A stretch of 25,934 nt of DNA from Candidatus Thorarchaeota archaeon (GTDB lineage: Archaea; Asgardarchaeota; Thorarchaeia; Thorarchaeales; Thorarchaeaceae): positions 1 to 25,934 of the forward strand of contig JAEOTX010000159.1 in NCBI GenBank assembly GCA_016839605.1. The letters are read 5' to 3'. Under the pieces are notes generated by a model. It was given only the letters and a program-made list of their open reading frames with translations. It did not search any database and was not told the origin of the DNA. Position numbers and translations under genes: made by a program. This document shows, in pieces, positions 3,385 through 18,716 of this stretch (within the stretch, counting starts at the first letter, position 1; the number at the start of each line of letters is the position of its first letter).

Positions 3385-4779
3385 TCACTCAATTGGCCAT
3401 TTGGGCTGGATATCAATCCCAGCCCTCTCAAGGAGCTTTCCACTATGCTTTAGGGCTCGTTCCATAACAGAAGTTTCATCCAGAGAGAGTAATTTCTTGC
3501 TCCTCATCAGGGGCTTGCCATTCACAATCACTGTGTCCACAGCATGTCCACTTCCAGAATATACTAGGTTCGACACCGGATTAGTGACAGGAGTGAACCC
3601 GAGGTCTTTCATGTCAATGAGAATAATATCTGCAAGCTTTCCGCTCTCTAGGGAGCCAACGGAATCTGATAGTCCCATTGCTTTTGCACCGCCAAGCGTT
3701 GCCATCTCGAGAGCCTGTTCAGCTGTCACTACAAGAGGGTCGTCAACCTTTGCCTTGTGAATGAGAGCTGCAAGACGGGTTTCACGAATCATATCATACG
3801 TGTTGTTACTAGGTCCACCATCGCAACCGAGAGACACTGGTACTTCCATTTTGAGCATCTCAGGCACCCTAGCAAAGCCGGATGCTAACTTCATGTTGCT
3901 TGCTGGGCAGTGAGAAATGTTGGACTGTGAATCTGCAAGTCTTTGGAGGTCTTCATCGTCAAAGTGTATTCCATGTGCAAATACCATATCCGATCCCAAG
4001 AGGTCGTTCTCTTTTGCAAACTCTGTAAGGGTCATATCGAAGTTATCTCTCACATAGCGTACATCATCAATCACTTCACCCAGATGCATGGTCATCCTGG
4101 TCTCCTTTTCTCTTGCAAGCTGGGCCACATCCTGGAACAACTCGGGAGTCACAGCACCAAGAGACCTCAGTCCATACCACACCTGAAGTCGGCCATCTGC
4201 TTTCCCATGCCATTTTGAGTACATTCTGGCGGTCTCATCAAGACAAGCATCCTTGTCCTCGACCATTCCAGGATACATAATGTCCGCACTGTCAGCATAA
4301 CCTGTTGAGTCCATGATTATCTTCGAGAGTGCTCCTCTCATTCCAACCTTCTCAACAGCCTGAGCGATCCCATCAAAGCCGTACCTAGTGTGAATCATAC
4401 ATTCCAAAAAAGAAGTTGTTCCGGTCCGAATCATCTCAGCCATACATAACTCCGCTGATACTCTGCCATCTTCCTCTGTGAAGTTGCCTTGGAGCACCCA
4501 GACATATTTCTTCAGCCAGTCCACGAGTGAAACATCATCTGCACACCCACGAATGAGGGCCTGAGCGAGATGAACATGAGTATCAATCATCCCAGGCATG
4601 ACGATCATGTTCTTGGCGGCTATTACTAGTTCGGCCTTCTCTTTGGCAAGTTCATTAGATTTGCCAACTCTTGTAATCTTCTGGCCTTCAACTAAAACTG
4701 AGCCATCTCTTATGATACGTCGTTTTGGGTCCATTGTAAGGATGTAGCCATTCTCTATCAGAATCGAGTCTACTGACAA
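3385..4779 (-). CDS. Metal-dependent amidohydrolase/deaminase (MtaD/SsnA/Atz-Trz family)
   Basis: PGMIDTHVH (HxH), GTTS, MHLGE (HxxE), AHGIH, HCPASNMKL, LGCDG and GSLESGKLADI motifs. TTG start preceded by GGAGG. Confidence 0.92.
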   Translation of the reverse strand: MSVDSILIENGYILTMDPKRRIIRDGSVLVEGQKITRVGKSNELAKEKAELVIAAKNMIVMPGMIDTHVHLAQALIRGCADDVSLVDWLKKYVWVLQGNFTEEDGRVSAELCMAEMIRTGTTSFLECMIHTRYGFDGIAQAVEKVGMRGALSKIIMDSTGYADSADIMYPGMVEDKDACLDETARMYSKWHGKADGRLQVWYGLRSLGAVTPELFQDVAQLAREKETRMTMHLGEVIDDVRYVRDNFDMTLTEFAKENDLLGSDMVFAHGIHFDDEDLQRLADSQSNISHCPASNMKLASGFARVPEMLKMEVPVSLGCDGGPSNNTYDMIRETRLAALIHKAKVDDPLVVTAEQALEMATLGGAKAMGLSDSVGSLESGKLADIILIDMKDLGFTPVTNPVSNLVYSGSGHAVDTVIVNGKPLMRSKKLLSLDETSVMERALKHSGKLLERAGIDIQPKWPIE

Positions 4780-4842
4780 GTGACCGCCTCCGACTCTATT
4801 CAGTTAGCGCGTATGACATAATGATTGTGGTCAGCACTGAGG

Positions 4843-6618
4843 CTACTCAGCAAGTCGAAACTCAACAGATACTACCAGTCCCTTTTCAGGCTGACCTTTC
4901 ACGCGGTCCTGGACCTTCAGCTTGGCTCCATACTTTTCTGCTAGTCGACGTACTAGATGAAGACCTACGCCACCATATCTTCGACCTGCATCAAACAATG
5001 CTCGCTTCTTAGAAATATTCAGACCAGGCCCGTTGTCTGCAACACTCAGTTTGAACGACTCATGGCTAATCTTTCCATTTATCCAAATCTGAGGTGTTTC
5101 CCCTTTGTTATGTCTAACACCATTTTCAATCAGATTCCAGAGAAGCTGCGAGAGGGCGCCATCTGCAAATACCTTTACCTTCCTCGGGATTCCTGTGAGG
5201 TCAGGAGTAATGCTGTACTGGCTCACAAGCAGTTCAATCTCTCCTTCCAACACCTTAACCAAGTCTGTCGCAATTACGGGATCAGTCTTTGTTTCCTCGG
5301 CCGTTCTCACCTTACTAATCAAGGTCAGACATCTATGAGCGCCATCAAGTACATATTGTTTCGCTCGCACAATCTCATCAGGATTAGATTCCCTAGCCAG
5401 AAAATCGCCTCCAGCCAGAATTAGCTGCATCTGGTTGCCTACGTCATGCATAAGCAGGTCTAGTAGGAATCTCGATTCATTCTCTGCGGACTTCAGAGCA
5501 GAAACATCAGTGAATATTGCAAAGCTCCCCATGTACTTGCCTTCGGGATCACGGATTGGACCAGCTGAGGCCATGGTTTGAATCAGGTCTCCATATTTTG
5601 ACACGAGCGTTGTTTCGTAGTGTTCTACTTCCCCCTGTTTTCTGGCGTCAGCCCGCATCTTGTACTTCTCTGCTGTGACATCATGATGTATCGTTCGCCC
5701 ATGTTTTCCAATTAGCTCGTTCTCCTCATAACCGAGCATCTCGTTGAGAGCAGCATTTGTGTATACGATTATACCGTCCTCATCATCCATTCCCATTCCT
5801 GCAGTCATGGTTTCGACTAGTCGACGATAATTATGCTCAGACTCCTCGAGTCGGCGTCTATCGGCCTTTTGCTCAGTGATATCCATAGCCTGTGTGATAG
5901 ACTTTGTAGCGCCATTCTTCCCTGTCATTGTAGTGACATGGATACGTACATCTCTGGCTGCGCCATCTCCTCTTCTGATTTTGAACTCGTATGCAGGGGG
6001 TACTTTCTCTCCAAGCTGTCTCTTCCTATATCGATCAGCAACCAGCTCTAGACTATCAGGATGAATTAAACTCCGGAAATCAAAGCCAATCAAATCTGAG
6101 CGTTTCATACCAACTAAATCACACAACTTGTCATTCACATATTCCAAACGATACTTGTCGTCAATAATGCCAATGGCGATGAAAGTTGAGTACTCCACGA
6201 TGTACTCTAGAAGGTCCTTTCTTTGTTCAACCTTCTCTTCAAATGCAGTACGTCTAGACAGATCAACAAGGTACGCAACAAAACCGATTACCTTTCCCTG
6301 AGACTCTATCTTATCACTGTACACCTGAGTCGGGACTTGGACATTATCCTTACGGAGGACACGAAGACTCAGTGATGTAGGATTCTCTCCAGCCTCAAGT
6401 TGGATTAGACCTCGATGTACAAGCTCGATTTGCTCCTCAACAACAAGCTTGTCGATGTTTATCTTGTCATAGATATCCTTCATCTCTATCTTTAGGAGTT
6501 CACGTGCTTTGGGATTAGCATATCTTAGATTCAGGTCAGTATCAAATTCCAACACTGGGATTAGCATTTCATCTGCTACTTCTCTGAAGCGTTTCCTCAC
6601 TTTATCCATCTTTTTCAC
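4843..6618 (-). CDS. Cytoplasmic multi-PAS sensor histidine kinase
   Basis: Three PAS/PAC repeats (YANPKA, YVNDKL...DIT, YTNAAL...TDVS). H-box LLMHDVGNQM, N-box NLIENGVRH, G1 DNGPG and G2 GGVGL. No TM segment. The start may be ATG 6609. Confidence 0.9.
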   Translation of the reverse strand: MKKMDKVRKRFREVADEMLIPVLEFDTDLNLRYANPKARELLKIEMKDIYDKINIDKLVVEEQIELVHRGLIQLEAGENPTSLSLRVLRKDNVQVPTQVYSDKIESQGKVIGFVAYLVDLSRRTAFEEKVEQRKDLLEYIVEYSTFIAIGIIDDKYRLEYVNDKLCDLVGMKRSDLIGFDFRSLIHPDSLELVADRYRKRQLGEKVPPAYEFKIRRGDGAARDVRIHVTTMTGKNGATKSITQAMDITEQKADRRRLEESEHNYRRLVETMTAGMGMDDEDGIIVYTNAALNEMLGYEENELIGKHGRTIHHDVTAEKYKMRADARKQGEVEHYETTLVSKYGDLIQTMASAGPIRDPEGKYMGSFAIFTDVSALKSAENESRFLLDLLMHDVGNQMQLILAGGDFLARESNPDEIVRAKQYVLDGAHRCLTLISKVRTAEETKTDPVIATDLVKVLEGEIELLVSQYSITPDLTGIPRKVKVFADGALSQLLWNLIENGVRHNKGETPQIWINGKISHESFKLSVADNGPGLNISKKRALFDAGRRYGGVGLHLVRRLAEKYGAKLKVQDRVKGQPEKGLVVSVEFRLAE

Positions 6619-6788
6619 AGTTCCGAATCAGGGGTAAATTTGGCATTGCATCTAATTCACACGACGTCCGGGGATGACACAAGAAGTCAAAGCTCCTTAC
6701 GCCTGCACAGGGTAGGTTCCAGTATTTCAATTTGCTATACTTGAGGATTGCTTGGACAGATAAAACAGTCTTCCAGAATGGCAACAAC

Positions 6789-6794
6789 TTAAAG
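6789..6794 (+). promoter_or_regulatory. Putative archaeal TATA box for the fdx-WOR1-DUF362 operon
   Basis: TTAAAG preceded by A-rich CAACAAC, about 40-60 nt upstream of the candidate starts at 6833 and 6851. Confidence 0.35.
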
Positions 6795-6850
6795 GGTGCA
6801 CTGCCTCGGGAAGGAGGGTCACACGAGAGAGAATGGAGAGGTCAGACGAT

Positions 6851-7342
6851 ATGAAGAACTTACTCGCGATTGATGTCAGCAAATGTACAGGTTGCAGGAA
6901 CTGCGAATTAGGTTGTTCGGCAGTTCAGACAAGGACTTTCAATCCTGCAAGATCGCGGATCAAGATACTGAAGAATGAGATAGAAACCACTATTGTACCT
7001 ATGGTCTGCTTGCAGTGCGAGGTGCCATTGTGTGTCGACGCATGTCCCACAGGTGCAATAGTAAGGAATGAGCACGATACACTCTATGTACACGATGATG
7101 ATTGCATAGGATGTGGGAACTGTGTGACTGCCTGTATCTACGGTGGTATAGAGATCGAACCAATGACTAGGAAAGCCATCAAATGCGACCTCTGCGGAGG
7201 AGACCCAGCATGTGTTAGGGCGTGTGACTATGGAGCCATAGAATATGTTGGCGCGAAGGCTCGTGATTTAACAAAAAGAGCCAATGGAATCAGTGCCTTA
7301 TCTCCTTTCTATAGATATGAAGAGCAGGAGGCTGAACCATGA
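6851..7342 (+). CDS. DmsB/HycB-type 4x[4Fe-4S] electron-transfer subunit of WOR1
   Basis: CTGCRNCELGC, CLQCEVPLCVDACP, CIGCGNCVTACI and KCDLCGGDPACVRAC motifs. Start 6851 follows GGAGAGG (the ORF is open from 6833). ATGA overlap with WOR1. Confidence 0.92.
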   Translation: MKNLLAIDVSKCTGCRNCELGCSAVQTRTFNPARSRIKILKNEIETTIVPMVCLQCEVPLCVDACPTGAIVRNEHDTLYVHDDDCIGCGNCVTACIYGGIEIEPMTRKAIKCDLCGGDPACVRACDYGAIEYVGAKARDLTKRANGISALSPFYRYEEQEAEP

Positions 7343-9270
7343 CATTTCCATACAAAGGATATGCTGGGTATTATGCTGAGGTTGACCTAACCAAAGGCAA
7401 AGTACACAAACGTGAGATGGAGAAGGAATGGGCGAGGCTGTATTTGGGCGGCACCGGGGTAGCAGCGAGAATACTATGGGAAGAAACAGGTCCAGACACA
7501 GATCCACTATCACCTGAGAATGTATTGATTCTCGGGACCGGGCCTCTCACAGGAGTCATGTTCTCACCTTCCGGCAGGATGATGTTTGCAGCGAAAGGAC
7601 CCTTGACCGGCGTATGGGCAGAGAGTCATGTAGGCGGCTTCTTCGGACCTGAAGTGAAATACGCAGGATTTGACTTTGTGATCTTGAAGGGTAGGTCTCC
7701 AAAGCCAGTCTATCTCTTTCTTCGTGATGGAAAAGCGGAGCTGCTTGATGCAAGTCATCTGTGGGGTAAAGAAACCGATGTGACCACTGACATGATTCGG
7801 GAGGAACATAAGGACCCCGAAATTGAAACTGGTATTATAGGGCCCGCTGGAGAGAATGGTGTACTCTATTCATGCATCACTGTTGACCGGTATAGAGCTG
7901 CTGGAAGGGCAGGTCTCGGTACAGTAATGGGATCAAAGAACGTGAAAGCAATTGCTGCGAGTGGATCATTGGGTCTTGAGGCCCACAACATGGACAAATA
8001 TCTTGAGGCCAATGACGTTGAAATGCAGAAACTCTCCGATCCAATCTGGACGGACTCTCTGACATCGCTCAGGAAATACGGTACAACAGACCTTGTGGCC
8101 ATTATCAATGAGATTGGCAGATTGCCTACAAAGAACCATTGGACTGGATTCTACGAGGATGCTGATGACATAGGCCCAGAAATCATTGCAGAAAAGTACC
8201 GCACTGGACAGGAAGCATGTCATGGATGTGAGGTGGGCTGCAAGTATGTCTATCGAGTGAAAGATGGAAAGTTTGCCCATGGGCCTGCAGGAGGGCCAGA
8301 ATATGAAACGATTATGGCCTTCGGCTCAAACTGCCTCAATAATGATATCGAATCTGTCTTTCACATGGGCACACGCTGTGACCTTCTCGGAATGGACACA
8401 ATCTCATGTGGAAAGAGCATTGGGTTTGCCATGGAGCTATGGGAGAAGGGAATAATCACCAAGAAAGACACGGATGGACTTGACCTCTCGTGGGGCAATG
8501 TTGAATCAATGGTAGAGCTTGTAGAGAAGATTGCCAAGCGTGATGGATTTGGTGACGTTCTATCAAAGGGCGTGAGGAAGGCTGCTGAGATAATCGGTGG
8601 AGATGCATGGATGTATGCTGTGCATGTCAAGGGGCTCGAAGCCTCCGGTCAGGATCCTAGAGCCCACCAATCAATTGGACTGACATATGCTACAAATGCT
8701 AGAGGCGCGGACCATTTGAGGAGCCTTTCAAGCCTGGAAGAACTAGGCTATCCAGAGATTGTCAAGGCTCGCTTTGATGATGAAAAGACAGATGCTATAC
8801 TTGACATAATGTCACCTAAGCATAAAGGCGAGGTCGTTTGGGACATTGAGGACCTCTATGCATTGGTGGACAGTGCTGTGATATGTAAGTACGGCACTAT
8901 GTGGCCTCCAGTATACTACTTTGACACATTCAGCAATGTGATATCACCGCTCACTGGAATGGACGAGTGGGCACAGCCTAAGTTCGTCAAACAGGCTGCT
9001 GAACGCATCAATCACTTGAGAAGAGCATACAATCACAGACTAGGAATAACAAGAAAGGAGGAAAACCTCCCAAGAAGGCTCTTGAAGGAGCCTATGCCTA
9101 CCGGACCTTCGAAAGGTGGACTTCCTGATCTCGATGAAATGCTCGACGAGTACTATGACTACAGGGGTTGTGACCGAGAAACCGGCTTCCCAAAGAAGGA
9201 GAAGCTAGAAGAGCTTGGACTTGATTTTGTAGCGAAAGACCTTGGCAAACGAAAGATGCTGGCCAAGTGA
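7339..9270 (+). CDS. Tungsten-dependent aldehyde:ferredoxin oxidoreductase family protein (WOR1)
   Basis: DPLSPEN, GPLTG, IGPAGEN, GRAGLGTVMGSKN, the Fe-S motif CHGCEVGC, GPEYET, GMDTIS, DPR, RGADH and a distal Cys (ICKYG). GGAGG RBS upstream. Confidence 0.95.
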   Translation: MTFPYKGYAGYYAEVDLTKGKVHKREMEKEWARLYLGGTGVAARILWEETGPDTDPLSPENVLILGTGPLTGVMFSPSGRMMFAAKGPLTGVWAESHVGGFFGPEVKYAGFDFVILKGRSPKPVYLFLRDGKAELLDASHLWGKETDVTTDMIREEHKDPEIETGIIGPAGENGVLYSCITVDRYRAAGRAGLGTVMGSKNVKAIAASGSLGLEAHNMDKYLEANDVEMQKLSDPIWTDSLTSLRKYGTTDLVAIINEIGRLPTKNHWTGFYEDADDIGPEIIAEKYRTGQEACHGCEVGCKYVYRVKDGKFAHGPAGGPEYETIMAFGSNCLNNDIESVFHMGTRCDLLGMDTISCGKSIGFAMELWEKGIITKKDTDGLDLSWGNVESMVELVEKIAKRDGFGDVLSKGVRKAAEIIGGDAWMYAVHVKGLEASGQDPRAHQSIGLTYATNARGADHLRSLSSLEELGYPEIVKARFDDEKTDAILDIMSPKHKGEVVWDIEDLYALVDSAVICKYGTMWPPVYYFDTFSNVISPLTGMDEWAQPKFVKQAAERINHLRRAYNHRLGITRKEENLPRRLLKEPMPTGPSKGGLPDLDEMLDEYYDYRGCDRETGFPKKEKLEELGLDFVAKDLGKRKMLAK

Positions 9271-10274
9271 TGCGCATTTCCGAAAAGTCCAAGAGCAAGT
9301 GCAGTTGCAATGACACCATGTCAGGGGGCATTATAGATCTTGGTCCTGCGAAGTTCACAAGTGAGGGATCGAGAAACGCGTTTATTGAGATTGTTTCGGG
9401 ACTCAATCTTAAGCCCCCAGTGATCATCAAGCCCAATTGGTCATCATCATTGATTTTCACAGAGAGGGATATTCTAGATTGGACTCTTTCAGCACTTGAT
9501 GGTGAAGTATTGATCGTGGAGAGTTATGCAGCTTGGAGGACCAGACTGTTCATTGAACATGATGGGCCCCGTGATGAGAAGTTCCTAGAGCTTCTGGGGA
9601 CTCAGAAGAAGAAGGAATTTAGAGCAAATGACAAATGGTTCCTTAGATATTCGGGGATTGATGGTGTTCTTGAGAAACACAATGTAGAGTATCTCAATCT
9701 CTCCGAGGAGCTATGGGCTAATCGAGTATGCGAGCCAAATTTGGTGGCAGATTTTGTCGAGAGTCGGGCGGGAGTCATGGAGAATACAGCACTGTACGGA
9801 CTTGTTCCAGAGCGCTTGTACGATTTGAAGGGCGGCACCTTATTGAACCTGACAAAACCCAAGAGGTCCCTGAAAGCACATCATGTGTCACTCACTCTGA
9901 AGAACATGTTTGGTATGATTCCAAGTCCTTGGAGGGGCAAATATCATGGTGAAAACGATTCACTTCTCGACCAAAACATAGTTGATATCAACAGGATATA
10001 TGGCTCCTTATTCGAAGTGAGAGGGATTATTGAGTCGGTCTTTTCTACGTCTGAAACACTAGACAATTTCCTTCTTCCAGCTATTCATCGAAATCAAGGA
10101 TTGATTTGGGGAGGTTCAGAAACTCTTGAACTGGATGCCCTTGTTTCTTCTCAACTAGGACTCAATCCTAATGATGTAGGCTATCTGAGATTAGCAGCAG
10201 AACAAATCAAGCCTTGGAGTGACGATAGCGTAAAACTTGGAATGACGAATCCTATTGATTTCCCTAAGAGCTAG
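9267..10274 (+). CDS. DUF362-family protein
   Basis: VIIKPNW, IVES, KPK...HVSLTLKNMFG, KYH and LDAL...LG motifs typical of DUF362. GTGA overlap with the WOR1 stop. The true start could be ATG 9270 or 9318. Confidence 0.7.
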   Translation: MMRISEKSKSKCSCNDTMSGGIIDLGPAKFTSEGSRNAFIEIVSGLNLKPPVIIKPNWSSSLIFTERDILDWTLSALDGEVLIVESYAAWRTRLFIEHDGPRDEKFLELLGTQKKKEFRANDKWFLRYSGIDGVLEKHNVEYLNLSEELWANRVCEPNLVADFVESRAGVMENTALYGLVPERLYDLKGGTLLNLTKPKRSLKAHHVSLTLKNMFGMIPSPWRGKYHGENDSLLDQNIVDINRIYGSLFEVRGIIESVFSTSETLDNFLLPAIHRNQGLIWGGSETLELDALVSSQLGLNPNDVGYLRLAAEQIKPWSDDSVKLGMTNPIDFPKS

Positions 10275-10325
10275 CGCTTCGTCCATCGGGTAACTCTTAT
10301 GTTGGGGGACTCATCTCAAATTGGT

Positions 10326-11420
10326 ATGGCAGACCTTAGGATTGAGATAGCTGGAATGCGGTTCAGGAATCCTGTATTCACTGCAGCAGGACCTACCTCA
10401 AGAGATGGGATGACCCTGCTCAATGCTGCAGCTGGAGGCGCAGGAGGACTGGTTGCAAAGACGGTAAGCGTCAAACCAGCGGATGTGCCAAAGCCGAACA
10501 TGGCAGCTCTTGGCAGTGGAAGGCGTGAATCACGACGTGGTATCTTGAATGCGGAACTGTGGAGTGAACTTCCAATTGAGAGATGGTTAGAGAAGGAGTA
10601 TGAGATTGCTCTCGGATCCGGATTGCCTGTCATTGCAAGTGTTGGGTACACACCAGAGGAGGTCTCTGAGATTGCTCCCAAGATCCAAGCGAAAGGAGTG
10701 AATGCAATCGAGTTCAGCACGCACTATGTGGGTGGTCACGTTGAGATTGCTAAGGCGCTTAGAGATTCAGTGGATATCCCTATCTTTGTAAAGCTTAGTC
10801 CTAAGGTAGATGTTGCAAAGATAGCCAAGGACTTGGAGCCTATTGTTGATGGTATTGTTGGGATCAATACGTACGGACCGGTTCTTAGAATTGATATTGA
10901 AACCGGAAAGCCCGTACTCGGCAGTGATTTGGGAGAAGGATGGATGAGTGGAGCATCACTCAAACCTATTGCAATGAGATGTATAGCTGACATTGCTAGA
11001 AGTGTCAGCAAACCCGTAATAGCAGTGGGGGGAGTCACAACAGGAGAGGATGCCATAGAGTTCATGATGGCAGGAGCGTCTGCTGTTGAGGTATGCACGG
11101 CTGCAATTCTGCAGGGTGACACTGTTTATGGCCAGATAGTTGGAGAGATGGGCAAGTGGCTTGATGAACATGGATATGATTCAGTGAATGCCATCAGGGG
11201 AACAGCCCTTAAGCATCTGGACAAGGGAGTAAAACTAAAGCCGCCTCCGAAGGTAGATCTTGAGAAGTGCACAAGATGCGGTTTGTGTCCAAAATCATGT
11301 GTCTATCATGCTATCAATCTAGACAAGGGGAAGGGGACTTTCTCTATTGATTCAGAAAAGTGTGAAGGGTGCGGCATGTGTGTTTCAGTATGCCCATACT
11401 TTGCGCTTAGCCTGGAATGA
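10326..11420 (+). CDS. Dihydropyrimidine dehydrogenase PreA / class 1 DHOD-like FMN protein with C-terminal 2x[4Fe-4S]; atypical active site
   Basis: NPVFTAAGP, AKT, NAELWSE (like DPD NIELISE), VKLSP, INT, SG..LKP and GGV motifs, plus CTRCGLC...C and CEGCGMCVSVCP. Likely start is ATG 10326, with TATA-like CTTATG about 25-30 nt upstream (the ORF is open from 10299). Confidence 0.88.
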   Translation: MADLRIEIAGMRFRNPVFTAAGPTSRDGMTLLNAAAGGAGGLVAKTVSVKPADVPKPNMAALGSGRRESRRGILNAELWSELPIERWLEKEYEIALGSGLPVIASVGYTPEEVSEIAPKIQAKGVNAIEFSTHYVGGHVEIAKALRDSVDIPIFVKLSPKVDVAKIAKDLEPIVDGIVGINTYGPVLRIDIETGKPVLGSDLGEGWMSGASLKPIAMRCIADIARSVSKPVIAVGGVTTGEDAIEFMMAGASAVEVCTAAILQGDTVYGQIVGEMGKWLDEHGYDSVNAIRGTALKHLDKGVKLKPPPKVDLEKCTRCGLCPKSCVYHAINLDKGKGTFSIDSEKCEGCGMCVSVCPYFALSLE

Positions 11421-11439
11421 CCTACTTCAGCAAATGAAC

Positions 11440-12648
11440 CTACAGGTAGAGAATCTCTTCGATGCCTTCAGTCAGAAGAACTGCTCTGTCTGTGCTGACG
11501 AGATAATCATTTTCGATTCGTACGCCGCCAATCTCTTTCAGATAGACACCTGGTTCAATGGCCATTACATGACCAGACTTGAAGTATGATTCACGGTCGT
11601 ACATAGATGGGTTCTCGTGGACCTCAAGACCAATGCCGTGTCCAAGACCATGCGTCATTCCCTCTTTTGCATTGGGATTAAGTCTCCGAGAGTTGTACCC
11701 TGAGCGCTCTAGACTCTCATAACATGCCATGTTTACATCATCGATTTTAGCCCCATCCTTAAGAGCATCAACTGCTGCACCTGCTGCTATCTGAACAGAC
11801 TCGAACATGTCACACAGTTTCTCACTGACTGATCCCTTTACAAAGGTGCGAGTAACGTCAGCGACATAACGCTCCAGTTTCAACCTCGGGAACACGTCAA
11901 GAATTGTAGGTTCATCAGCCTTCAGCTCATCTTCAGGAGCACCTAGGTAATGCCAGTCGAATGCCCGCTTTCCAACAGCCAAGATTGTATCTGAAGCAAC
12001 CTCAGCGCCATGGTCAAGGAGGAAGTGCTCAAGAGCCAGCTTCATTCTCCCAACCGTCAATGGCTCGCCTTTATACATCAAGGTCTTTTTGGGACCTATA
12101 TCTGAGTCCTTGACCATCTCAAGTAGCTTAGAAATCCCACCCACTGTTGCATCTCCAGCCTTCTTTATAGCATCAATCTCTGCTGCTGACTTGGCTGCCC
12201 GCGCATCTCTCAGCAGGTCTGGGACCACTTTTACTTCATATCCCATTTTTTGGATAATAACAAGGCGTTCAGCTGGTATGTGATCGGGCACACCAATAAT
12301 CTTCCCTGTAAAGACGTTCTTCATTGTATCTTCCACAAAGAGATCTATATGCTCGCGCGCACTCTTCCCCTCTTTCATCAGACCGATGTATATCTCTGAC
12401 AAGTCATGGGTCCTTGTTATACGACTCTCCTTCTCGACTCGTTCCAGAGTGTTGAAGAAAGCAGCCACAACAGGCTCCGCTCCCCGATTCTTTACATACG
12501 TGATCTGATCTCCCGATCTGAATCCAGTCAGCCAGTAGATATCTGGCGTGTCAAATGCATTTCCTATAGCAATTAATCCGTCAATTTCATGCTTCTCCAT
12601 TAGTGAGTCTAAGTCATCTAACACTATCTGCACCGGTTTACACAGCAT
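11440..12648 (-). CDS. M24 family Xaa-Pro aminopeptidase/prolidase
   Basis: Creatinase-like N-terminal domain. Metal ligands in LDV, ADVTRT, HGLGHGIGLEVHE, IEPGVY and VRIEND. Confidence 0.92.
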   Translation of the reverse strand: MLCKPVQIVLDDLDSLMEKHEIDGLIAIGNAFDTPDIYWLTGFRSGDQITYVKNRGAEPVVAAFFNTLERVEKESRITRTHDLSEIYIGLMKEGKSAREHIDLFVEDTMKNVFTGKIIGVPDHIPAERLVIIQKMGYEVKVVPDLLRDARAAKSAAEIDAIKKAGDATVGGISKLLEMVKDSDIGPKKTLMYKGEPLTVGRMKLALEHFLLDHGAEVASDTILAVGKRAFDWHYLGAPEDELKADEPTILDVFPRLKLERYVADVTRTFVKGSVSEKLCDMFESVQIAAGAAVDALKDGAKIDDVNMACYESLERSGYNSRRLNPNAKEGMTHGLGHGIGLEVHENPSMYDRESYFKSGHVMAIEPGVYLKEIGGVRIENDYLVSTDRAVLLTEGIEEILYL

Positions 12649-12674
12649 ACTAACTAGCGAAAAAGGGTTCGCAT

Positions 12675-13598
12675 TCAGTACTGTGAGTAAGGCTTCATCC
12701 GTCTTTCAACCTGTTCTCGAGTTGGCAGGTCATAGGGACCAGTTGTTTCTACATTGAATGATGAGCATGTAGCACCAAAAAGACCTGCACGTTTTACATC
12801 GCCCGTTCGCATGTATTCCAGAAGAAATGAGATGACATATACATCACCGCAACCGGTGGGATCTGTCTGGGAGTTAGCTAGTACAAGGGGAATGTCCTTC
12901 TGCGTATTTCGCGTATATACTGTGGAGCCTCGTCGGTCCCGAGTAACCAGAACCATTCGTGGACCAATATTGAGGAGCTCGGTCACTGCGGAAAGCTCGG
13001 ATTGTGCATCATATGCTAGTTTGAGTTCCGCCTCATCAAACTTCACCACATCTGCAAGTGCAAGAATATCATCTCTTTCAGACCACTCTCTCTCAACGAT
13101 TAGTTCGTTTTCGATGCCTCGCAGAAAACCCTGACTGTCGATAGATATCAGAGGGCTCCCTACTCTTACAGATTCAATAGTTGAGTAGGTAATCTCATTG
13201 GCTGTCAGTGGACTGAAGTGGTAAATACTGGCACCCATGTACAGAGGAAGAATATCACTGGGGCTTATCGGCGAACCTACGGATTCAACTCTCTGCGTAC
13301 GGTTTCCTTCCACATCATATTCGTTGATGAACCTTGTACTCTTCTTTCCTCGTTTCTGGATTCCTGAAACGATGAGTCCCGCAGTCCTAAGAGTGTCAAT
13401 ATATTCATCCTCGAAATCTGCGCCGACGCAGCTGATAATTCCAGCACCCAAAGCACCAAGCTTTGGCGCAATCATAGCATATGCGGGGCCTCCGCCAATG
13501 GCTTCAGTTCTGCTTTCAGGGGTGATTATGAGATCCCTGCTCAGATGACCAATTACCACAATCTCCATCGGCTCTGCCTCTGTAGACACCTCTTTCAC
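12675..13598 (-). CDS. PfkB/ribokinase-family carbohydrate or nucleoside kinase
   Basis: VIGHLSRD, GGGPAY, VGADF and the C-terminal anion-hole motif DPTGCGDVY. Confidence 0.9.
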   Translation of the reverse strand: MKEVSTEAEPMEIVVIGHLSRDLIITPESRTEAIGGGPAYAMIAPKLGALGAGIISCVGADFEDEYIDTLRTAGLIVSGIQKRGKKSTRFINEYDVEGNRTQRVESVGSPISPSDILPLYMGASIYHFSPLTANEITYSTIESVRVGSPLISIDSQGFLRGIENELIVEREWSERDDILALADVVKFDEAELKLAYDAQSELSAVTELLNIGPRMVLVTRDRRGSTVYTRNTQKDIPLVLANSQTDPTGCGDVYVISFLLEYMRTGDVKRAGLFGATCSSFNVETTGPYDLPTREQVERRMKPYSQY

Positions 13599-13700
13599 TC
13601 TAGCGAATGCTAGAACAACAACACTCTAGCTAATAATTCCTCTGCATCACTGCCCATTTGATGAACATTGCAGTTACATGATAATCCTCGTTCATAAGTG

Positions 13701-13706
13701 TTAAAA
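13701..13706 (+). promoter_or_regulatory. Putative TATA box for the moaD-amidohydrolase-fdx-WOR2 operon
   Basis: TTAAAA about 30-40 nt upstream of the TTG starts at 13735 and 13744. Confidence 0.4.
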
Positions 13707-13734
13707 TGAAAAGAGTCCACGTTGAGAAACTGAG

Positions 13735-14025
13735 TTGGAGCTCTTGGCTATAGTCACTGTGAAATTCTTTGCAACCGTTCGGGAGGCTGTCGGAACAAGA
13801 AGTACGGAGATTGAAGCGGAAGATATCAAGAGCTTGCTTGAGAAGCTCAAGACGTCATACGGAAAACGGTTCATTGAAACGGTGATTGATGAGGAAACAG
13901 ACAAACTGAAACGATTCTATCAGTGCATGGTCAATGGGAAACGTATCGAACTCCTTGATGGTTACGATACTCTACTACAAGATGGTGATTCAGTAGCTCT
14001 CTTCCCGCCAGTGGGAGGAGGCTAG
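13735..14025 (+). CDS. MoaD/SAMP ubiquitin-like sulfur carrier protein
   Basis: VKFFATVREAVG, MVNG and the C-terminus DGDSVALFPPVGGG. The start may be TTG 13744. Confidence 0.92.
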   Translation: MELLAIVTVKFFATVREAVGTRSTEIEAEDIKSLLEKLKTSYGKRFIETVIDEETDKLKRFYQCMVNGKRIELLDGYDTLLQDGDSVALFPPVGGG

Positions 14026-14058
14026 ACTAGTCAATTGTTGCCAAGGGGGATATTCGAG

Positions 14059-15417
14059 ATGGTAGACCTTGTGGTCAAGAATGCCAAGCTATTGCTCCAG
14101 TCTGGACTAACAAGAGGGGGGCTTGGTGTAGACGCGGGTCAAATCTGCATTATTGCTACCGATGAACATCTTCCAGATGCTTCAACCGTTATTGATGCAG
14201 CAGGCAAGATCGTGATGCCAGGCCTGATAGACGGACATGCTCATCTACATGATCCGACTATGCTAAGTCATGAAGATTTTACCACAGGCTCACGTGCAGC
14301 GGCAGCTGGGGGCGTCACAACTGTGGTTGACATGCCACTCACGAATCAGATTGATTCGCCTCAGGCGGTTGAAGAAAAGATGGCGCAAGGCGAGTCCATG
14401 TCGATTGTGGATTTCACCTTCTATGCAGGTATGTTGAACTCTGACAATTACACAATGATTCCAGCAATGGTTGAGAAGGGGATTGCAGCCTTCAAAGCCT
14501 TCACCTGTGAGCCGTACCCAACGAGTGATGGTGTTCTAATCCAAGCATTGAGTGCTGCATCTGAGTCTGGTGGACATGTTACCCTGCATGCAGAGAATCA
14601 AGGGGTACTTGACGAATTCGCTCGGGAGATGGATGGGGAGTGGGATGCGCCAATAAGCCATTCACTTGCTAGACCCAATATCGCTGAGCAACTCGCTGTG
14701 AAACAGGCTGTGACAATAGCAGAGCAGGTAGGTGGCCATCTTCATATTGCTCATATCACCACCCGAGAGGGATTGGCAGAGGTAGAGCGGGGTAAGCTAA
14801 AGGGGACTATGGTCACTACTGAGGTGTGCCCTCATCACCTAGTCTTTCATAGAGATGAAATGAACCGACTTGGACCTAAAAGCAAGATGAATCCGCCGCT
14901 GAGATCGAGAACAGATAGATCAGCCCTATGGTCGGCGCTGCTCCGTGGAACAATCGATATGACTGTCAGTGATCACGCACCATGCCCCATTGATATGAAG
15001 GAAGCTGGTAATGATGACATTCGCAAGGCTTGGTCAGGTGTTGACGGGATTCAAATGATATTGAGAGTACTCCTCTCTGAAGGCATCAATAAGGGGAGGA
15101 TATCATTCACTCGGCTCTTGAATGTAGCATCTCTTAATCCAGCCAAATTGTTCGGACTCTATCCAAGAAAGGGCGTCCTAGCTGTTGGGGCTGATGCAGA
15201 TTTCGTGATAATAGACCCTACAAGAGAGGAGAAGCTGACATCTGAGATGATGTTCTCGAAGTGTGGCTGGACACTCTACGAAAACATGATGATGAAAGGA
15301 GCGCCAATAATGACGATTGTCCGCGGAACTCCAGTTTATGAGGAGGACAGAATACTAGTCGAGTCAGGTCATGGAAGATTCCAAGCAATGAAAGGTATAG
15401 CGCCATTTGAGGACTGA
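14059..15417 (+). CDS. Cyclic amidohydrolase, allantoinase/hydantoinase-like
   Basis: DGHAH, AAAGGVTTVVDMPL, FKAF (carboxylated Lys), LHAEN, HIAH, EVCPHHL, MNPPLR, SDHAPC, AWSG and GADAD motifs. ATG 14059 follows AGGGGG (the ORF is open from 14035). Confidence 0.88.
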   Translation: MVDLVVKNAKLLLQSGLTRGGLGVDAGQICIIATDEHLPDASTVIDAAGKIVMPGLIDGHAHLHDPTMLSHEDFTTGSRAAAAGGVTTVVDMPLTNQIDSPQAVEEKMAQGESMSIVDFTFYAGMLNSDNYTMIPAMVEKGIAAFKAFTCEPYPTSDGVLIQALSAASESGGHVTLHAENQGVLDEFAREMDGEWDAPISHSLARPNIAEQLAVKQAVTIAEQVGGHLHIAHITTREGLAEVERGKLKGTMVTTEVCPHHLVFHRDEMNRLGPKSKMNPPLRSRTDRSALWSALLRGTIDMTVSDHAPCPIDMKEAGNDDIRKAWSGVDGIQMILRVLLSEGINKGRISFTRLLNVASLNPAKLFGLYPRKGVLAVGADADFVIIDPTREEKLTSEMMFSKCGWTLYENMMMKGAPIMTIVRGTPVYEEDRILVESGHGRFQAMKGIAPFED

Positions 15418-15420
15418 AGA

Positions 15421-15909
15421 ATGACTGAACTGAAGTTTGTATTCGGAGACCCAGAGGTCTGCACAGGATGCATGGTTTGCGTAAATGTATGCAGCATGCG
15501 ATATTCGAAAGTAATTGGCCCTAGCTGGTCGCGTGTCAGAGCAGTAAGGATAGAACCAGGGCTTGATTTTCCCCTTTTTTGTAGAAACTGTGAGGACGCT
15601 CCATGCATGGCTGCCTGTCCAAACGAGGCGATAAGTCGAACTTCAAAGGGTGTTGTCATTGTGAACAATAAGAAGTGTACGGGCAGTGGTGAGTGTGTCA
15701 AGGCATGCCCCTATTATGCGATCAGACTTCATCCAGACACTGAGAAGGCAATCAAATGCATCCAATGCGGTGCATGTGTGGACAGATGCCCTGTGAACGC
15801 AATATGGATTACTACTGAAAATGAACTGAACGAGAAAGATGCGGATGGTAGACTCTCATCTCTGTATGAAAAACATGAGACTGAGCTATACAACAAGGAG
15901 GAGATATGA
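15421..15909 (+). CDS. DmsB-type polyferredoxin subunit of WOR2
   Basis: CTGCMVCVNVC, CRNCEDAPCMAACP, CTGSGECVKACP and CIQCGACVDRCP motifs. ATGA overlap with WOR2. Confidence 0.92.
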   Translation: MTELKFVFGDPEVCTGCMVCVNVCSMRYSKVIGPSWSRVRAVRIEPGLDFPLFCRNCEDAPCMAACPNEAISRTSKGVVIVNNKKCTGSGECVKACPYYAIRLHPDTEKAIKCIQCGACVDRCPVNAIWITTENELNEKDADGRLSSLYEKHETELYNKEEI

Positions 15910-17789
15910 TGAAGGGAATCGGAGGAAACAATCTCTGGATTGACCTGACAAAGGGTGAGATAGAGAAGCGACCAGTTGAAGAGGAGATGGTCAATGAGTA
16001 TCTTCTCGGAGCGGGATATCTCTCTCGGGTTCTTTACGACAACATACCTGTTGGAATAGATCCCCTTTCTCCCAAGAATGTGCTTGGAATTGCCACAGGA
16101 CTACTCACGGGATCGATGTTTCCACAGGCTTCGCGTCATGTAGTAGCTGCATTATCACCCCTCACCGATGTGTGGGGAGAGTCGCATGCAGCAGGATTCT
16201 GGGGACCTGAGCTAAAATTCGCAGGCTATGACGCCATCATCTTCACGGGGGCATCATCAGATCCAGTATATCTCTACATCCAGAATGACACTGTGGAGCT
16301 TCTGGATGCTTCCGATATATGGGGTACATCCGTCTTTGAAACTGATGACTGGATTCGAGAGAAGCATAGCAAGCGAGCAAGAGTGCTCTCGATAGGGCAA
16401 GCAGGAGAAAACAAGGTACGATTCGCAGCTGTGATGAACGACCGAGACCGTGCATCTGCCAGGTCAGGACTTGGAGCTGTAATGGGATCTAAGGGACTCA
16501 AAGCAATCTCTGTCAGAGGCACTGGAAAGCTAGAAGTCGCGGATCCGAAGGACTATCTCAATCAGATGGACATCTTCTATGAGAGGATGCTGGCAAATCC
16601 ATTCACAAAAGAGCGAGCCAAGTATGGAACTACCAATCTTGTTGAGTTGATGAATCACATTGGGAGACTGCCTAGCTATAACATGCGGCAGGGTGTCTTT
16701 GAGGGCTTTGAGAAGATCAGCGGGCATACCATCACGGAGAAACACTTAGTGAAACCTCGGTCGGACTGGAGCTGTCTACAGAGATGCGGTAGATACACGA
16801 GGGTAAAAGAAGGGCCATACAAGTACATTGGCGGCTCACCGGAGTTCGAATCACAATCCTCTCTTGGCTCTCGATGTGGAAACGACAACTTGGAATCAGT
16901 TCTATTCAGTCATCACCTGGCCAACATGTACGGTATGGATACAATCTCACTTGGTGCAACTATCTCATGGGCGATGGAGGCATGGGATGAAGGACTATTG
17001 ACGTCTGAAGACACTGATGGTATTGATCTCGCCTGGGGTAATCATGAAACAGTTGTCAAGCTCACTGAGATGATAGCTCTGCGAGAGGGTTTTGGTGATA
17101 TTCTCGCAGAAGGTAGTGTCCGGGCAGCCGAGAGGATTGGTCGTGGAACTGAGAAATTCGTTATGACGGTTAAGAAGCAAGAGATTGCTGGGCAAGAGCC
17201 ACGTGCTCAAAAGTCAATGGGACTAGCTGCCGTCACAGCAGCTAGAGGGGCAGACCATCTCTATGCATTCCCCGTTCTTGATGAGGCTGGATTTGACAAG
17301 GAGATCAAGGAGCGTTTTGGTGAGCAGTATCTACCTGAGATGGCCGACCGTCTGAATCCAAAATACAAGGGAATTATGGTGAAAGAATGTGAGGACTTCA
17401 TGGTAATGGTCGAGAGTGTTGGCCTGTGTAAGTATGGAACGCAGATTCCTCCCGAATTCTACTATGATGATGTAGCACAAGCACTAAGAATTCACAACGG
17501 CCTAGATCTTACTAGTGAGGAACTTCAGACTATAGGAGAACGAATTGTGAATCTTAATCGACTGTTCAACGTTGCCCGTGGCGTCACACGAAGCGACGAC
17601 CAACTTCCTGATAGATTGACGAAGGAAGGAGCACCAAAGGGACCATCGCCTGGTCAGGTGGTGGAACTAGACCAGATGCTTGACGAGTATTATGAACAAA
17701 GGGGCTGGAATTTAGAAAATGGTTTCCCCACAATGGATACTCTGAAACGCTTAGGTCTTGAAAAGGAAGGAAAAGCAGTCATCAAGTAG
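15906..17789 (+). CDS. Tungsten-dependent aldehyde:ferredoxin oxidoreductase family protein (WOR2)
   Basis: DPLSPKN, SPLT, IGQAGEN, RSGLGAVMGSKGLKA, SPEFES, GMDTIS, EPR, RGADH and LCKYG motifs. GGAGGAG RBS upstream. Confidence 0.95.
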   Translation: MMKGIGGNNLWIDLTKGEIEKRPVEEEMVNEYLLGAGYLSRVLYDNIPVGIDPLSPKNVLGIATGLLTGSMFPQASRHVVAALSPLTDVWGESHAAGFWGPELKFAGYDAIIFTGASSDPVYLYIQNDTVELLDASDIWGTSVFETDDWIREKHSKRARVLSIGQAGENKVRFAAVMNDRDRASARSGLGAVMGSKGLKAISVRGTGKLEVADPKDYLNQMDIFYERMLANPFTKERAKYGTTNLVELMNHIGRLPSYNMRQGVFEGFEKISGHTITEKHLVKPRSDWSCLQRCGRYTRVKEGPYKYIGGSPEFESQSSLGSRCGNDNLESVLFSHHLANMYGMDTISLGATISWAMEAWDEGLLTSEDTDGIDLAWGNHETVVKLTEMIALREGFGDILAEGSVRAAERIGRGTEKFVMTVKKQEIAGQEPRAQKSMGLAAVTAARGADHLYAFPVLDEAGFDKEIKERFGEQYLPEMADRLNPKYKGIMVKECEDFMVMVESVGLCKYGTQIPPEFYYDDVAQALRIHNGLDLTSEELQTIGERIVNLNRLFNVARGVTRSDDQLPDRLTKEGAPKGPSPGQVVELDQMLDEYYEQRGWNLENGFPTMDTLKRLGLEKEGKAVIK

Positions 17790-17803
17790 GAGTGGACATC
17801 ACA

Positions 17804-18298
17804 ATGGGGAAATTTCAGAGCAAGATGGATATCACAGTCTATGAGCACTTCAAGGACAAGAGCACTAAGCTCGTGTTTCTAATCCGCGAGTTGGAGCAGG
17901 TCTTAGGTAAGGAAAAAGCACACGAGATCGTTTCCAACTGGGCTGAGAAAAATGCAGTGAAAGACGTAAGCACCGTTGTGGACTCCTTAGATAGGCCGGT
18001 AGAATCCTTTGATGATGTTAAGGTGCTACTTAAGCACTGGGTAGATGCGCTCAACAAAGACAACATGGAGACTGTCGAGATTACTGAGGAAACGTCCACT
18101 AAATCTGTCTGCATAGTCACTGAGTGTATCTACGCTAAGGTATTCAATGACCTTGACGCACCAGATCTGGGATATTTGCTTCATTGCAAGCAAGACTTTC
18201 CAGCAACACCAGCCATTCATCCAAATATGAGATTGAAACGGTCTAAGACCGTTATGGAAGGACACGACTGCTGTGACTTCGAGTACTACTGGGAGTAA
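17804..18298 (+). CDS. L-2-amino-thiazoline-4-carboxylate (ATC) hydrolase-like protein
   Basis: VTEC.YA, LGYLLHC..D and LKRSKTVMEGHDCCDF, the family's Cys pattern. ATG 17804 follows GGAGTGG (the ORF is open from 17792). Confidence 0.8.
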   Translation: MGKFQSKMDITVYEHFKDKSTKLVFLIRELEQVLGKEKAHEIVSNWAEKNAVKDVSTVVDSLDRPVESFDDVKVLLKHWVDALNKDNMETVEITEETSTKSVCIVTECIYAKVFNDLDAPDLGYLLHCKQDFPATPAIHPNMRLKRSKTVMEGHDCCDFEYYWE

Positions 18299-18336: not shown

Positions 18337-18582
18337 TTAGTCAGATGCAGCACAGACATTCGTGACTGTGTCTTTCACACCATCGACCTTACGTAATGTA
18401 TCCACGACAAATGAACTCAAAGACTCAGGCGTCTTGAAACCGCCTTTGATCAAGAGGTCATATGCACCATAAATCAAGTGGGCTTCCTCAACCTCTTCTA
18501 GGTCGCGAACATGGACTAGAACATCACGGGCCTTTGCCGACTCGATTTTTGCCATGATAAAGGCTGTAATCACAAATTTCAC
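18337..18582 (-). CDS. Stand-alone Lrp/AsnC ligand-binding (RAM) domain protein
   Basis: 81 aa with AFIMAK, EAHLIYGAYDLLIK and LRKVDGVKDTVT. No HTH domain. Confidence 0.88.
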   Translation of the reverse strand: MKFVITAFIMAKIESAKARDVLVHVRDLEEVEEAHLIYGAYDLLIKGGFKTPESLSSFVVDTLRKVDGVKDTVTNVCAASD

Positions 18583-18716
18583 CCACCGAAAGACTACTTC
18601 GTGATAGTTCTCCTGTGGGAAACATAAAACTGTTCCTTCTCAGCAGCATATCCACTCCTCAGTACTTATTACTTGGTCTTGAAGGGCCGTTCGGGAACAC
18701 TGGGAGTGTATCTGCA

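Follow-up and report, generated by a model that had tools for sequence, protein, structure and literature searches.

A candidate tungsten-type variant of reductive purine ring degradation in a gene island of a Thorarchaeota archaeon

The reductive degradation of urate is known in Escherichia coli, Clostridioides difficile and Clostridium sporogenes. In this pathway, which was elucidated in 2025, urate is reduced by XdhD/DOPDH to 2,8-dioxopurine (yanthine), and the ring is then dearomatised by YgfK or by UacX, a ferredoxin-dependent reductase with a dihydroorotate dehydrogenase (DHODH) fold. SsnA and HyuA open the rings, and YgeW/UacY, YgeY and YgeX finish the degradation by taking off the ureido groups and splitting diaminopropionate. 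The papers that describe the pathway report it only from bacteria, and they mention neither tungsten enzymes nor members of the aldehyde oxidoreductase (AOR) family (PMC12507026; bioRxiv 10.1101/2025.04.24.650524). Here a gene island from a Thorarchaeota (Asgard) genome, 80% complete, is described in which two AOR-family enzymes, WOR1 and WOR2, are encoded among putative ring-degrading enzymes. The window, i.e. the whole stretch of DNA that was analysed, is contig C90 of this genome with 25,934 nucleotides, and the island lies at positions 3385-18298. Genes were called by combining a listing of open reading frames (ORFs) with Pfam and NCBIfam family scans and with sequence matches to the PDB. 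Judged by its gene content, the island probably serves the degradation of a purine-type N-heterocycle; that it is a tungsten-type variant of the reductive (uric-acid/2,8-dioxopurine-type) degradation of purine rings is a serious possibility, at somewhat less than an even chance.

The described systems closest to the two AOR-family modules are AorABC from Aromatoleum aromaticum (PDB entry 8c0z) and WorABCSL from Acetomicrobium mobile (9mqx), both of which are 'clade 87' tungsten AORs with a polyferredoxin subunit (PMC6365974, PMC12318220). In the classification of the WORs (types BF, N, M and U) no partner with a DHODH fold occurs, and types BF and N are reported only from Bacteria (PMC12318220). 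A precedent for non-aldehyde chemistry in the AOR family is given by BamB of the class II benzoyl-CoA reductase (4z3w), which likewise occurs with a polyferredoxin and acts on an aromatic ring. Unlike WOR1 and WOR2, where the Glu/His pair is kept, tungsten in BamB is bound by a Cys and the Glu/His second shell is missing, and the 2025 review of tungsten enzymes names no purine or heterocycle as substrate (PMC12096430). A search for AOR or tungsten enzymes linked to purine or hydantoinase-type ring degradation gave nothing relevant in the searchable literature. To our knowledge, aldehydes and acids are the substrates of all characterised AOR and WOR enzymes, with the exception of BamB and its benzoyl-CoA.

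The genes on which the comparison turns are mostly arranged in two operons on the plus strand. Operon 1 (genes g07-g10) encodes the AorA/WorS-type polyferredoxin Fd1 (6833-7342; 16 Cys, enough for four [4Fe-4S] clusters), the AOR-family pterin subunit WOR1 (7339-9270; AFOR_N 252 bits, AFOR_C 415 bits), a DUF362-like protein and a UacX/PreA-like FMN reductase (10299-11420; DHO_dh 108 bits and Fer4 domains, with two CxxCxxCxxxC motifs), hereafter the PreA-like protein. Operon 2 (g13-g17) starts with a MoaD/ThiS, SAMP-type sulfur carrier (13735-14025; TIGR01687 moaD_arch 78 bits, cut-off 49.5), the product of which appears to serve pterin cofactor synthesis. It continues with a hydantoinase/allantoinase-like cyclic amidohydrolase (14035-15417) with intact metal ligands, the second AorA/WorS-type polyferredoxin Fd2 (15421-15909; Fer4 families, 15 Cys), the second pterin subunit WOR2 (15906-17789; AFOR_N 244 bits, AFOR_C 425 bits) and a small protein of the ATC_hydrolase family. 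The intergenic distances within both operons range from -4 to 24 bases, the ORFs of each polyferredoxin and its WOR overlapping by 4 bases. On the minus strand, at 3385-4779, a deaminase-like COG0402 amidohydrolase of group A (see below) is encoded (Amidohydro_1 244 bits; HxH and HLGE motifs).

Several of these features are shared with the urate pathway: an FMN/Fe-S reductase of UacX architecture, hydrolases of the COG0402 and hydantoinase types, and a gene for the pterin cofactor within the cluster. Carbamoyltransferase, M20 and PALP genes, which also belong to this likeness, are carried by other Asgard families and by a Bacillota metagenome-assembled genome (MAG) with the WOR-linked core. 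In contrast to the urate pathway, the island contains two AOR-family modules with polyferredoxins, and no XDH (xanthine dehydrogenase)-family enzyme was found in it. Its COG0402 enzyme is deaminase-like, the window is missing YgeW, YgeX and YgeY, and an M24 hydrolase, a PfkB kinase and the ATC_hydrolase are extra. A preliminary description of this DNA, which read it as a tungsten-dependent anaerobic purine/pyrimidine catabolic system, had named nine gene types, all of which were recovered at 3385-18298 by the ORF listing and family scans; the M24 hydrolase, a PAS-domain histidine kinase and an AsnC-type protein had been overlooked.

The counterpart of the island with a molybdenum enzyme is found within the Asgard archaea themselves. 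In family f5 (f-numbers denote Asgard families, f1 being that of the source genome), a homologue of the PreA-like protein (35-38% identity) is encoded in an XDH-type cluster at L118:3448-18949 of genome G026. The genes at this locus are XdhC, XDH MoCoBD, XDH FAD/2Fe-2S, a YgeX-like PALP, and UacX-like, SsnA-like and HyuA-like genes, and near this core lie an OTCace gene and a YgeY homologue that is 60% identical to the E. coli protein. In its gene content L118 is a canonical molybdenum-type 2,8-dioxopurine/uric-acid cluster in an Asgard archaeon. In the island, the WOR modules hold the place that the XDH-family molybdenum enzymes take in this homologous cluster of a sister family.

All presence counts given here refer to a sample of 301 Asgard genomes. 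When these were searched for the molybdopterin domain of XDH, matches were found in none of the 76 genomes of f1, none of the 19 of f12 and not in the one genome of f18; they were found in 26 of 28 genomes of f5, 19 of 21 of f22 and 9 of 11 of f14. The source genome, at its completeness of 80%, has no match to this domain (PF02738). The distribution is the complementary pattern that is expected if WOR modules displace XDH. The check for a missing xdh that had been proposed earlier thus gave no XDH-family gene in the source genome, in f1 or in f12. The broader suggestion, that the chemical logic is the same with AOR-family enzymes in the XDH position, gains from the molybdenum cluster of the sister family and from the XDH that was not found; an action of the WORs on nucleobases gains no support from them.

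The PreA-like protein provides a second link to purine-type clusters. It has the DHO_dh fold and a C-terminal domain with two [4Fe-4S] clusters, it is without the FAD domain, just as the UacX form has no FAD/NAD domain, and all NCBIfam models score below their cut-offs. In the alignment, the loop with the catalytic Cys (NxSCPH) is deleted. The loop is also deleted in all WOR-linked homologues, in the XDH-linked homologue of f5 (L118) and in a Bacillota homologue (L135), and it is present in the PydA-like protein and the PyrD of the same genome. Because the deletion is common to the XDH-linked and Bacillota homologues, the PreA-like reductase belongs with the UacX-position proteins of purine-type clusters; its identity is 35% to the L118 homologue and 39% to the L135 homologue. 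With the Pyd/PreTA pathway of pyrimidine reduction, the island shares a DHO_dh-fold reductase with two [4Fe-4S] clusters and a cyclic amidohydrolase, but its reductase is without the NxSCPH loop and no beta-ureidopropionase is encoded in the window.

The start of this gene needs a correction. The listed ORF probably starts nine codons early; the orthologues begin at the Met of MADL, and the start codon is probably Met10 at base 10326. Several orthologues carry an in-frame TGA (e.g. L012:4678-4768) upstream of the true start. Selenocysteine in the PreA-like protein was considered and rejected, since the TGA precedes the start codon. A predicted complex of Fd1 with the PreA-like protein received a score of zero, which counts neither for nor against contact.

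It could further be observed that the core of the island persists outside f1. Orthologues of the PreA-like protein (51-58% identity) are found in four further Asgard families, namely f12, f15, f18 and f6. In all four the gene adjoins a WOR1-type gene and its polyferredoxin, and a WOR2-type module, MoaD-like genes and two COG0402 genes are present. Gene order and orientation are altered in these islands, which are without the Thorarchaeota-type hydantoinase, the M24 hydrolase and the PfkB kinase; the latter two are syntenic in f1 only, and M24 is not in the clusters of f12, f15 and f18. Two OTCace carbamoyltransferases adjoin the cluster in f12. In a maximum-likelihood tree, WOR1 and WOR2 form two well-supported clades that each span f1, f12 and f15, and the pair is accordingly old and has been retained. 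The preliminary description had proposed the conservation of the neighbourhood as a check, and WOR, PreA-like and amidohydrolase genes do stand together, in varied orders, in five Asgard families, and beyond them in a Bacillota MAG and an archaeal contig.

These last two cases come from a check in which the WOR of the f6 cluster served as query and six homologues at 47-54% identity were examined (L131-L136). In the Bacillota MAG (L135), two AFOR genes lie among SsnA-like, UacX-like, HyuA-like and MoaD-like genes and a COG0402 gene that resembles the one of the island (g05). The same locus holds two YgeY-like M20 genes (one with 43% identity to YgeY), a YgeW-like OTCace gene (38%) and two PALP genes; its HyuA-like protein is 39% identical to E. 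coli HyuA, and no XDH was found within 20 kb. On the archaeal contig (L131), genes of the DHO_dh/Fe-S and Amidohydro_1 types accompany two AFOR genes. Two contigs give partial hints: a Bac_luciferase gene directly upstream of AFOR, a second AFOR gene and a DHOase fragment. The association thus recurs in distant lineages. The WOR clade was also considered as a dedicated marker of the pathway, and this was rejected: of the six outside homologues two matched, two did so partially, and two stood in unrelated or XDH surroundings.

A Bac_luciferase gene of the F420 type is found directly 5' of AFOR in three unrelated contigs (L131:7902-8906, L134:222-1232 and L136:7879-8883). An F420-dependent reductase of the 'luciferase family' has been proposed as a substitute for YgfK/UacX in Chloroflexota (PMC12507026).

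Within Thorarchaeota the island is strongly conserved. In a set of 20 loci excised from 16 genera, a syntenic core of 12 genes is found: COG0402, histidine kinase, Fd1, WOR1, PreA-like, M24, PfkB, MoaD, hydantoinase, Fd2, WOR2 and AsnC. The core proteins are 45-85% identical across the 16 genera, with about 80% for WOR2 and about 70% for the hydantoinase-like protein. Orthologues of the hydantoinase at an identity of at least 59% are found only in f1, where 75 of 76 genomes have them, and the PreA-like gene is present in 72 of the 76. The neighbouring LeuRS, ABC-2 transporter and DUF998 genes are often syntenic as well, and synteny in a single family is for this reason insufficient as evidence of function. 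It could therefore be asked whether ordinary AOR operons and their MoaD gene have simply been kept beside unrelated genes of nucleotide metabolism by a conservative gene order, without any common pathway. The syntenic flanks, the 11 AFOR loci of the source genome and the relatives of the hydantoinase outside Thorarchaeota, which never adjoin a WOR, would all suit this explanation. It is nevertheless very improbable, as 4-base overlaps and gaps of 3-9 bases bind the ring enzymes into the WOR operons, and the association persists through rearrangement in four Asgard families and recurs in the Bacillota MAG and the archaeal contig. The 12-gene core across 16 genera, together with the smaller, rearranged core in other families, shows that the grouping exceeds chance.

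One single-contig Thorarchaeota genome departs from this arrangement: in G245 (C1) the hydantoinase and the PreA-like gene lie 1.8 Mb apart (245206-246267 and 2076566-2077663), and either the island is split or the assembly is in error.

As to the kind of ring, the preliminary description had left purine and pyrimidine open. Reductive pyrimidine catabolism was tried as the role of the island and rejected: a separate and complete set for it is found elsewhere in the source genome, on contig C102 (L129:1-5700). The PydA-like Fe-S reductase of this set runs into the contig end; the other members are a class III aminotransferase, a CN_hydrolase of the beta-ureidopropionase type, a dihydropyrimidinase with 36% identity to E. 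coli HyuA, a protein with the cytidine-deaminase fold and a second CN_hydrolase. Since the pyrimidine pathway is encoded there, the substrate of the island is more likely of the purine type, and the pyrimidine option was dropped. An equivalent set is found in a genome of the same genus (G134, L121:5006-15031), with a TnpB-like gene (Cas12f1-like TNB domain) between the CN_hydrolase and the dihydropyrimidinase genes. A role in de novo pyrimidine synthesis (PyrC and PyrD) was raised by the match of the cyclic amidohydrolase to the loose model pyrC_multi (315 bits, cut-off 279). It was rejected as well, since a PyrD that fits better (214 bits) and has the catalytic loop is encoded on C207 and another DHOase-like gene lies on C106, and since the closest solved relatives of the cyclic amidohydrolase are hydantoinases and allantoinases.

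The hydantoinase-like protein itself falls short of the allantoinase model (348 bits, cut-off 358) and of the D-hydantoinase model TIGR02033 (326 bits, cut-off 393). Its top PDB match is the L-hydantoinase 1gkr (268 bits), followed by D-hydantoinases and allantoinases. All metal ligands, namely HxH, the carboxylated Lys, two further His and the Asp, are invariant, and the identity to E. coli HyuA is 29% (183-207 bits). The nearest relative outside Thorarchaeota (43% identity, on an archaeal contig) adjoins a group B hydrolase, MocA and XdhC. The co-occurrence of WOR and allantoinase-like genes, as earlier proposed, holds within Thorarchaeota; beyond them, 73 loci with relatives of this hydantoinase were found to be without a WOR.

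The COG0402 proteins split into two groups in an all-against-all comparison: group A, which includes the gene of the window, and an SsnA-like group B. Among the NCBIfam models, the window protein scores 404 bits with DadD (cut-off 522), 323 with 8-oxoguanine deaminase and 216 with SsnA (cut-off 444), and its closest PDB entry is the MTA/SAH deaminase 4f0r. In comparison with the E. coli proteins, it reaches 144 bits with GuaD and 70 bits with SsnA. The gene had at first been labelled SsnA-like; it is better described as a deaminase-like relative of guanine/8-oxoguanine/MTA-SAH deaminases, the true SsnA type of this genome being encoded on contig C2. Group A orthologues (51-77% identity) lie within the cluster in f1, f12 and f18, and group B genes adjoin the Fd1-WOR1-PreA-like unit in f12, f15 and f18.

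With these two hydrolases, the same enzyme logic could also be directed at a substrate other than a purine, for example a pterin, a hydantoin- or creatinine-like compound, a modified nucleobase, a base derived from 5'-deoxyadenosine, or another N-heterocycle or cyclic ureide. The COG0402 protein matches best to 5'-deoxyadenosine deaminase and TRZ/ATZ models, all below cut-off, and the hydantoinase is nearest to an L-hydantoinase rather than to HyuA. In addition, M24 (creatinase fold), PfkB and ATC_hydrolase are without counterpart in the bacterial urate pathway, and the window holds no YgeW, YgeX or YgeY. A non-purine substrate is nonetheless improbable: the loop deletion groups the PreA-like protein with homologues from complete urate-type clusters, SsnA-type hydrolase and carbamoyltransferases are part of the island in other families, and the AFOR-bearing cluster of the Bacillota has the full urate-type gene set. 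In the source genome, candidate genes for the later steps of a purine pathway are found on other contigs: OTCace genes on C197 and C141 (58% and 49% identical to the in-cluster pair of f12), a carbamate kinase gene on C161, and YgeX-like PALP genes on C158 and C179, the latter contig also carrying an M20 gene.

The WOR proteins are 43% identical to each other. The best solved relatives of both are broad-spectrum tungsten AORs: WorL of A. mobile (9mqx; 441 bits for WOR1, 439 bits for WOR2), the AOR of Pyrococcus furiosus (1aor; 421 bits for WOR1), AorB of A. aromaticum (8c0z) and 9g7j. FOR, BamB (244-256 bits) and WOR5 score far lower. Fd1 finds its top PDB matches in AorA (8c0z_C, 115 bits) and WorS (9mqx_E, 101 bits), and Fd2 is 37% identical to Fd1. 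By the relatives of Fd1, the Cys counts and the relatives of the WORs, the modules are AorAB/WorSL-like. Shared with AorABC and WorABCSL are the AFOR_N and AFOR_C domains, the Glu/His pair, the [4Fe-4S] site, a four-cluster small subunit whose gene directly precedes that of the large subunit, and the MoaD-like gene of the operon. The third partner is different: in the island it is a DHODH-fold FMN/Fe-S protein, whereas it is FAD/NAD in type N, Bfu in type BF and a quinone module in type U. The ring hydrolases in the operons also set the island apart.

In the active site, both WORs retain the catalytic pair of Glu313 and His448, numbered as in P. furiosus. All four Cys ligands of the [4Fe-4S] cluster (CxxCxxxC...C) are kept in WOR1. 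In WOR2, an Asp takes the place of the first ligand (Cys288 of the P. furiosus AOR), giving the motif D-x2-C-x3-C, and the remaining three are Cys. This Asp is conserved in the f1 and f12 orthologues, and the f15 orthologue has Cys. Two further positions close to the metal are changed in both WORs. The second-shell Tyr (PAYDPR) is replaced by Gln (SGQDPR in WOR1, AGQEPR in WOR2), and the Cys that precedes the catalytic His (RGGCH) is replaced by Asp (RGADH). The Tyr is retained in each of the five solved AORs aligned, and 1aor, 9mqx, 9g7j and 9q1t (WOR83 of Haloferax) have both Tyr and Cys. An altered second-shell Tyr accompanies a different substrate class in WOR5 (PMC12096430, a review). Since the Tyr-to-Gln exchange is also found in unrelated contexts, it marks a clade and not a pathway; the signature places the WORs outside the characterised groups and says nothing on function. 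On the earlier question of whether the WORs fall in aldehyde-oxidising clades, the answer is accordingly divided: they are without the second-shell Tyr of the solved AORs, yet the catalytic Glu and His are retained.

The closest paralogue of WOR1 in the source genome (45% identity) is encoded on contig C179 (L130:6896-10471), where it shares an operon with polyferredoxin and class IV aminotransferase genes; a glutamate dehydrogenase gene is nearby. The orthologues of this paralogue in f15 and f18 sit within the ring-degradation island.

A pathway can be proposed in which the deaminase would first yield an oxopurine. The two WORs would then carry out the oxidation of a ring carbon and the dehydroxylation, as XDH and XdhD/DOPDH do in bacteria, so that the two WORs would correspond to these two bacterial enzymes. 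A hydrated amidine C-H carbon resembles an aldehyde hydrate, and enzymes of the xanthine oxidase family take both kinds of substrate. In the third step, WOR1 would trade electrons via Fd1 with the UacX-like reductase, which would dearomatise the ring. The two rings would be opened by the hydantoinase-like enzyme and by an SsnA-type hydrolase, the gene of which lies off the island in this genome and inside the cluster in other families. The degradation would be completed by carbamoyltransferases, a carbamate kinase and a YgeX-like lyase, likewise encoded off the island. Action of the WORs on the ring itself is conceivable, though we would put it a little below an even chance. In its most specific form, the proposal holds that WOR1 and WOR2 are tungsten-pterin purine hydroxylases/dehydroxylases that replace the molybdenum (and selenium) enzymes XDH/DOPDH, with WOR1 in a WorSL-UacX complex that couples the oxidation of a ring carbon directly to dearomatisation; in all these particulars it is tentative and somewhat unlikely.

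A number of observations weigh against a tungsten-type purine pathway. Both WORs still have Glu313 and His448, which serve in aldehyde oxidation, and the best structural relatives are broad-spectrum AORs. The Gln/Asp signature is common to the whole clade around the WORs, even where the gene context is unrelated; the Tyr-to-Gln exchange also occurs in an Anaerolineae homologue (L132), a Zhaonella homologue (L133) and the C179 paralogue. Two of the six outside AFOR homologues are without ring-enzyme neighbours: in L132 the gene lies amid 2-oxoacid dehydrogenase genes, and in L133 it lies with an XDH-type enzyme and MoaD. In other phyla, relatives of the hydantoinase occur at 73 loci, none of which contains a WOR, and this enzyme is on that ground not the anchor of the WOR association. 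The window is without SsnA-type, YgeW, YgeX and YgeY genes; the SsnA-type gene of the source genome is off the island, on C2, and in a single-contig Thorarchaeota genome (G239) it is located about 47 kb from it. The complementarity with XDH rests on few independent lineages, the Asgard families being kin, and one f6 genome (G004) has both systems. Finally, WtpA was not found in the genome, a result that, with the genome incomplete, does not settle the choice of metal.

The first of these points leads to another explanation. The WORs may be genuine aldehyde oxidoreductases, the polyferredoxins of which pass electrons of very low potential to the UacX-like reductase. The aldehydes could stem, for example, from 2-oxoacids in peptide fermentation or from the pathway itself, the heterocycle would act as electron sink, and the PreA-like protein would be a new 'plug' on the WorSL wire, like AorC and WorABC. 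The conserved Glu/His pair in both WORs and the broad-spectrum AORs with AorA/WorS partners as nearest solved relatives speak for this explanation. The characterised members differ chiefly in the electron-accepting module on WorSL (PMC12318220), WOR1 adjoins the PreA-like gene in every family, and UacX is thought to require reduced ferredoxin (PMC12507026). The clade occurs in mixed gene contexts, and the C179 paralogue, with its aminotransferase and glutamate dehydrogenase, stands in a classical setting of aldehyde-forming amino-acid catabolism. However, natural purines need redox chemistry at a ring carbon to reach 2,8-dioxopurine, and aldehyde oxidation leaves it unexplained that XDH was not found in the island families. 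It also gives no reason why the WOR2 module is co-transcribed with the hydantoinase and MoaD genes instead of the reductase, nor does it explain the replaced second-shell Tyr. We regard this explanation as doubtful, though to be taken seriously.

The remaining genes of the island add less to the argument. A PAS-domain sensor histidine kinase (4843-6618, minus strand; PAS_9, PAS and HATPase_c domains) is a candidate regulator and is syntenic in most Thorarchaeota loci. The M24 hydrolase of the prolidase/creatinase fold (11440-12648, minus strand; Peptidase_M24 130 bits) has distant PDB relatives, the best being the prolidase 1pv9 (90 bits), and possibly cleaves a ureido or amide intermediate. 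The PfkB-family kinase (12675-13598, minus strand; PfkB 77 bits), perhaps for a sugar or a nucleoside, matches distantly to TM0415 and MJ0406. A stand-alone AsnC/Lrp ligand-binding (RAM) protein (18337-18582, minus strand; AsnC_trans_reg 50 bits) follows WOR2 in nearly all Thorarchaeota loci.

Two genes that were previously counted as cluster members turned out to be variable additions. The DUF362-like gene (9267-10274, plus strand; a weak match of 26 bits, cut-off 24) was not found at the 20 related loci, nor does the source genome hold a paralogue of it; it is an insertion specific to the close kin of the source genome and not part of the core. The ATC_hydrolase gene (17792-18298, plus strand; PF14196 70 bits) is found only in some Thorarchaeota loci (L004, L021, L028, L029 and L039).

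Downstream of the island, a protein of 394 residues is encoded at 18615-19799 (plus strand). Its sole match is weak (24 bits), to the N-terminal lipocalin domain of CrtC; the genome holds no paralogue, and the gene was not found in related loci. It is followed by a LigB-family protein (19803-20582, minus strand) that matches the 4,5-DOPA extradiol dioxygenase model of the YgiD type with 272 bits, above the curated cut-off of 233. This class is oxygen-dependent, which is surprising in an organism presumed to be strictly anaerobic. The window gave no matches in an Rfam scan.

The island supplies a defined set of proteins that can be expressed and assayed. If the WORs do replace XDH, the known chemistry of tungsten enzymes would be widened, as these would be the first known AOR-family members to act on ring carbons of N-heterocycles, and the WorSL 'nanowire' family would gain a new type of electron output. 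On the more conservative explanation, aldehyde oxidation that drives ring reduction would, if true, also be a new coupling. A replacement of XDH would moreover explain how purines from dead biomass can be used by sediment archaea in which XDH was not found. With the hydantoinase in 75 and the reductase in 72 of 76 genomes, the island is near-universal in f1, and it is for this reason probably important for the physiology of these Thorarchaeota.

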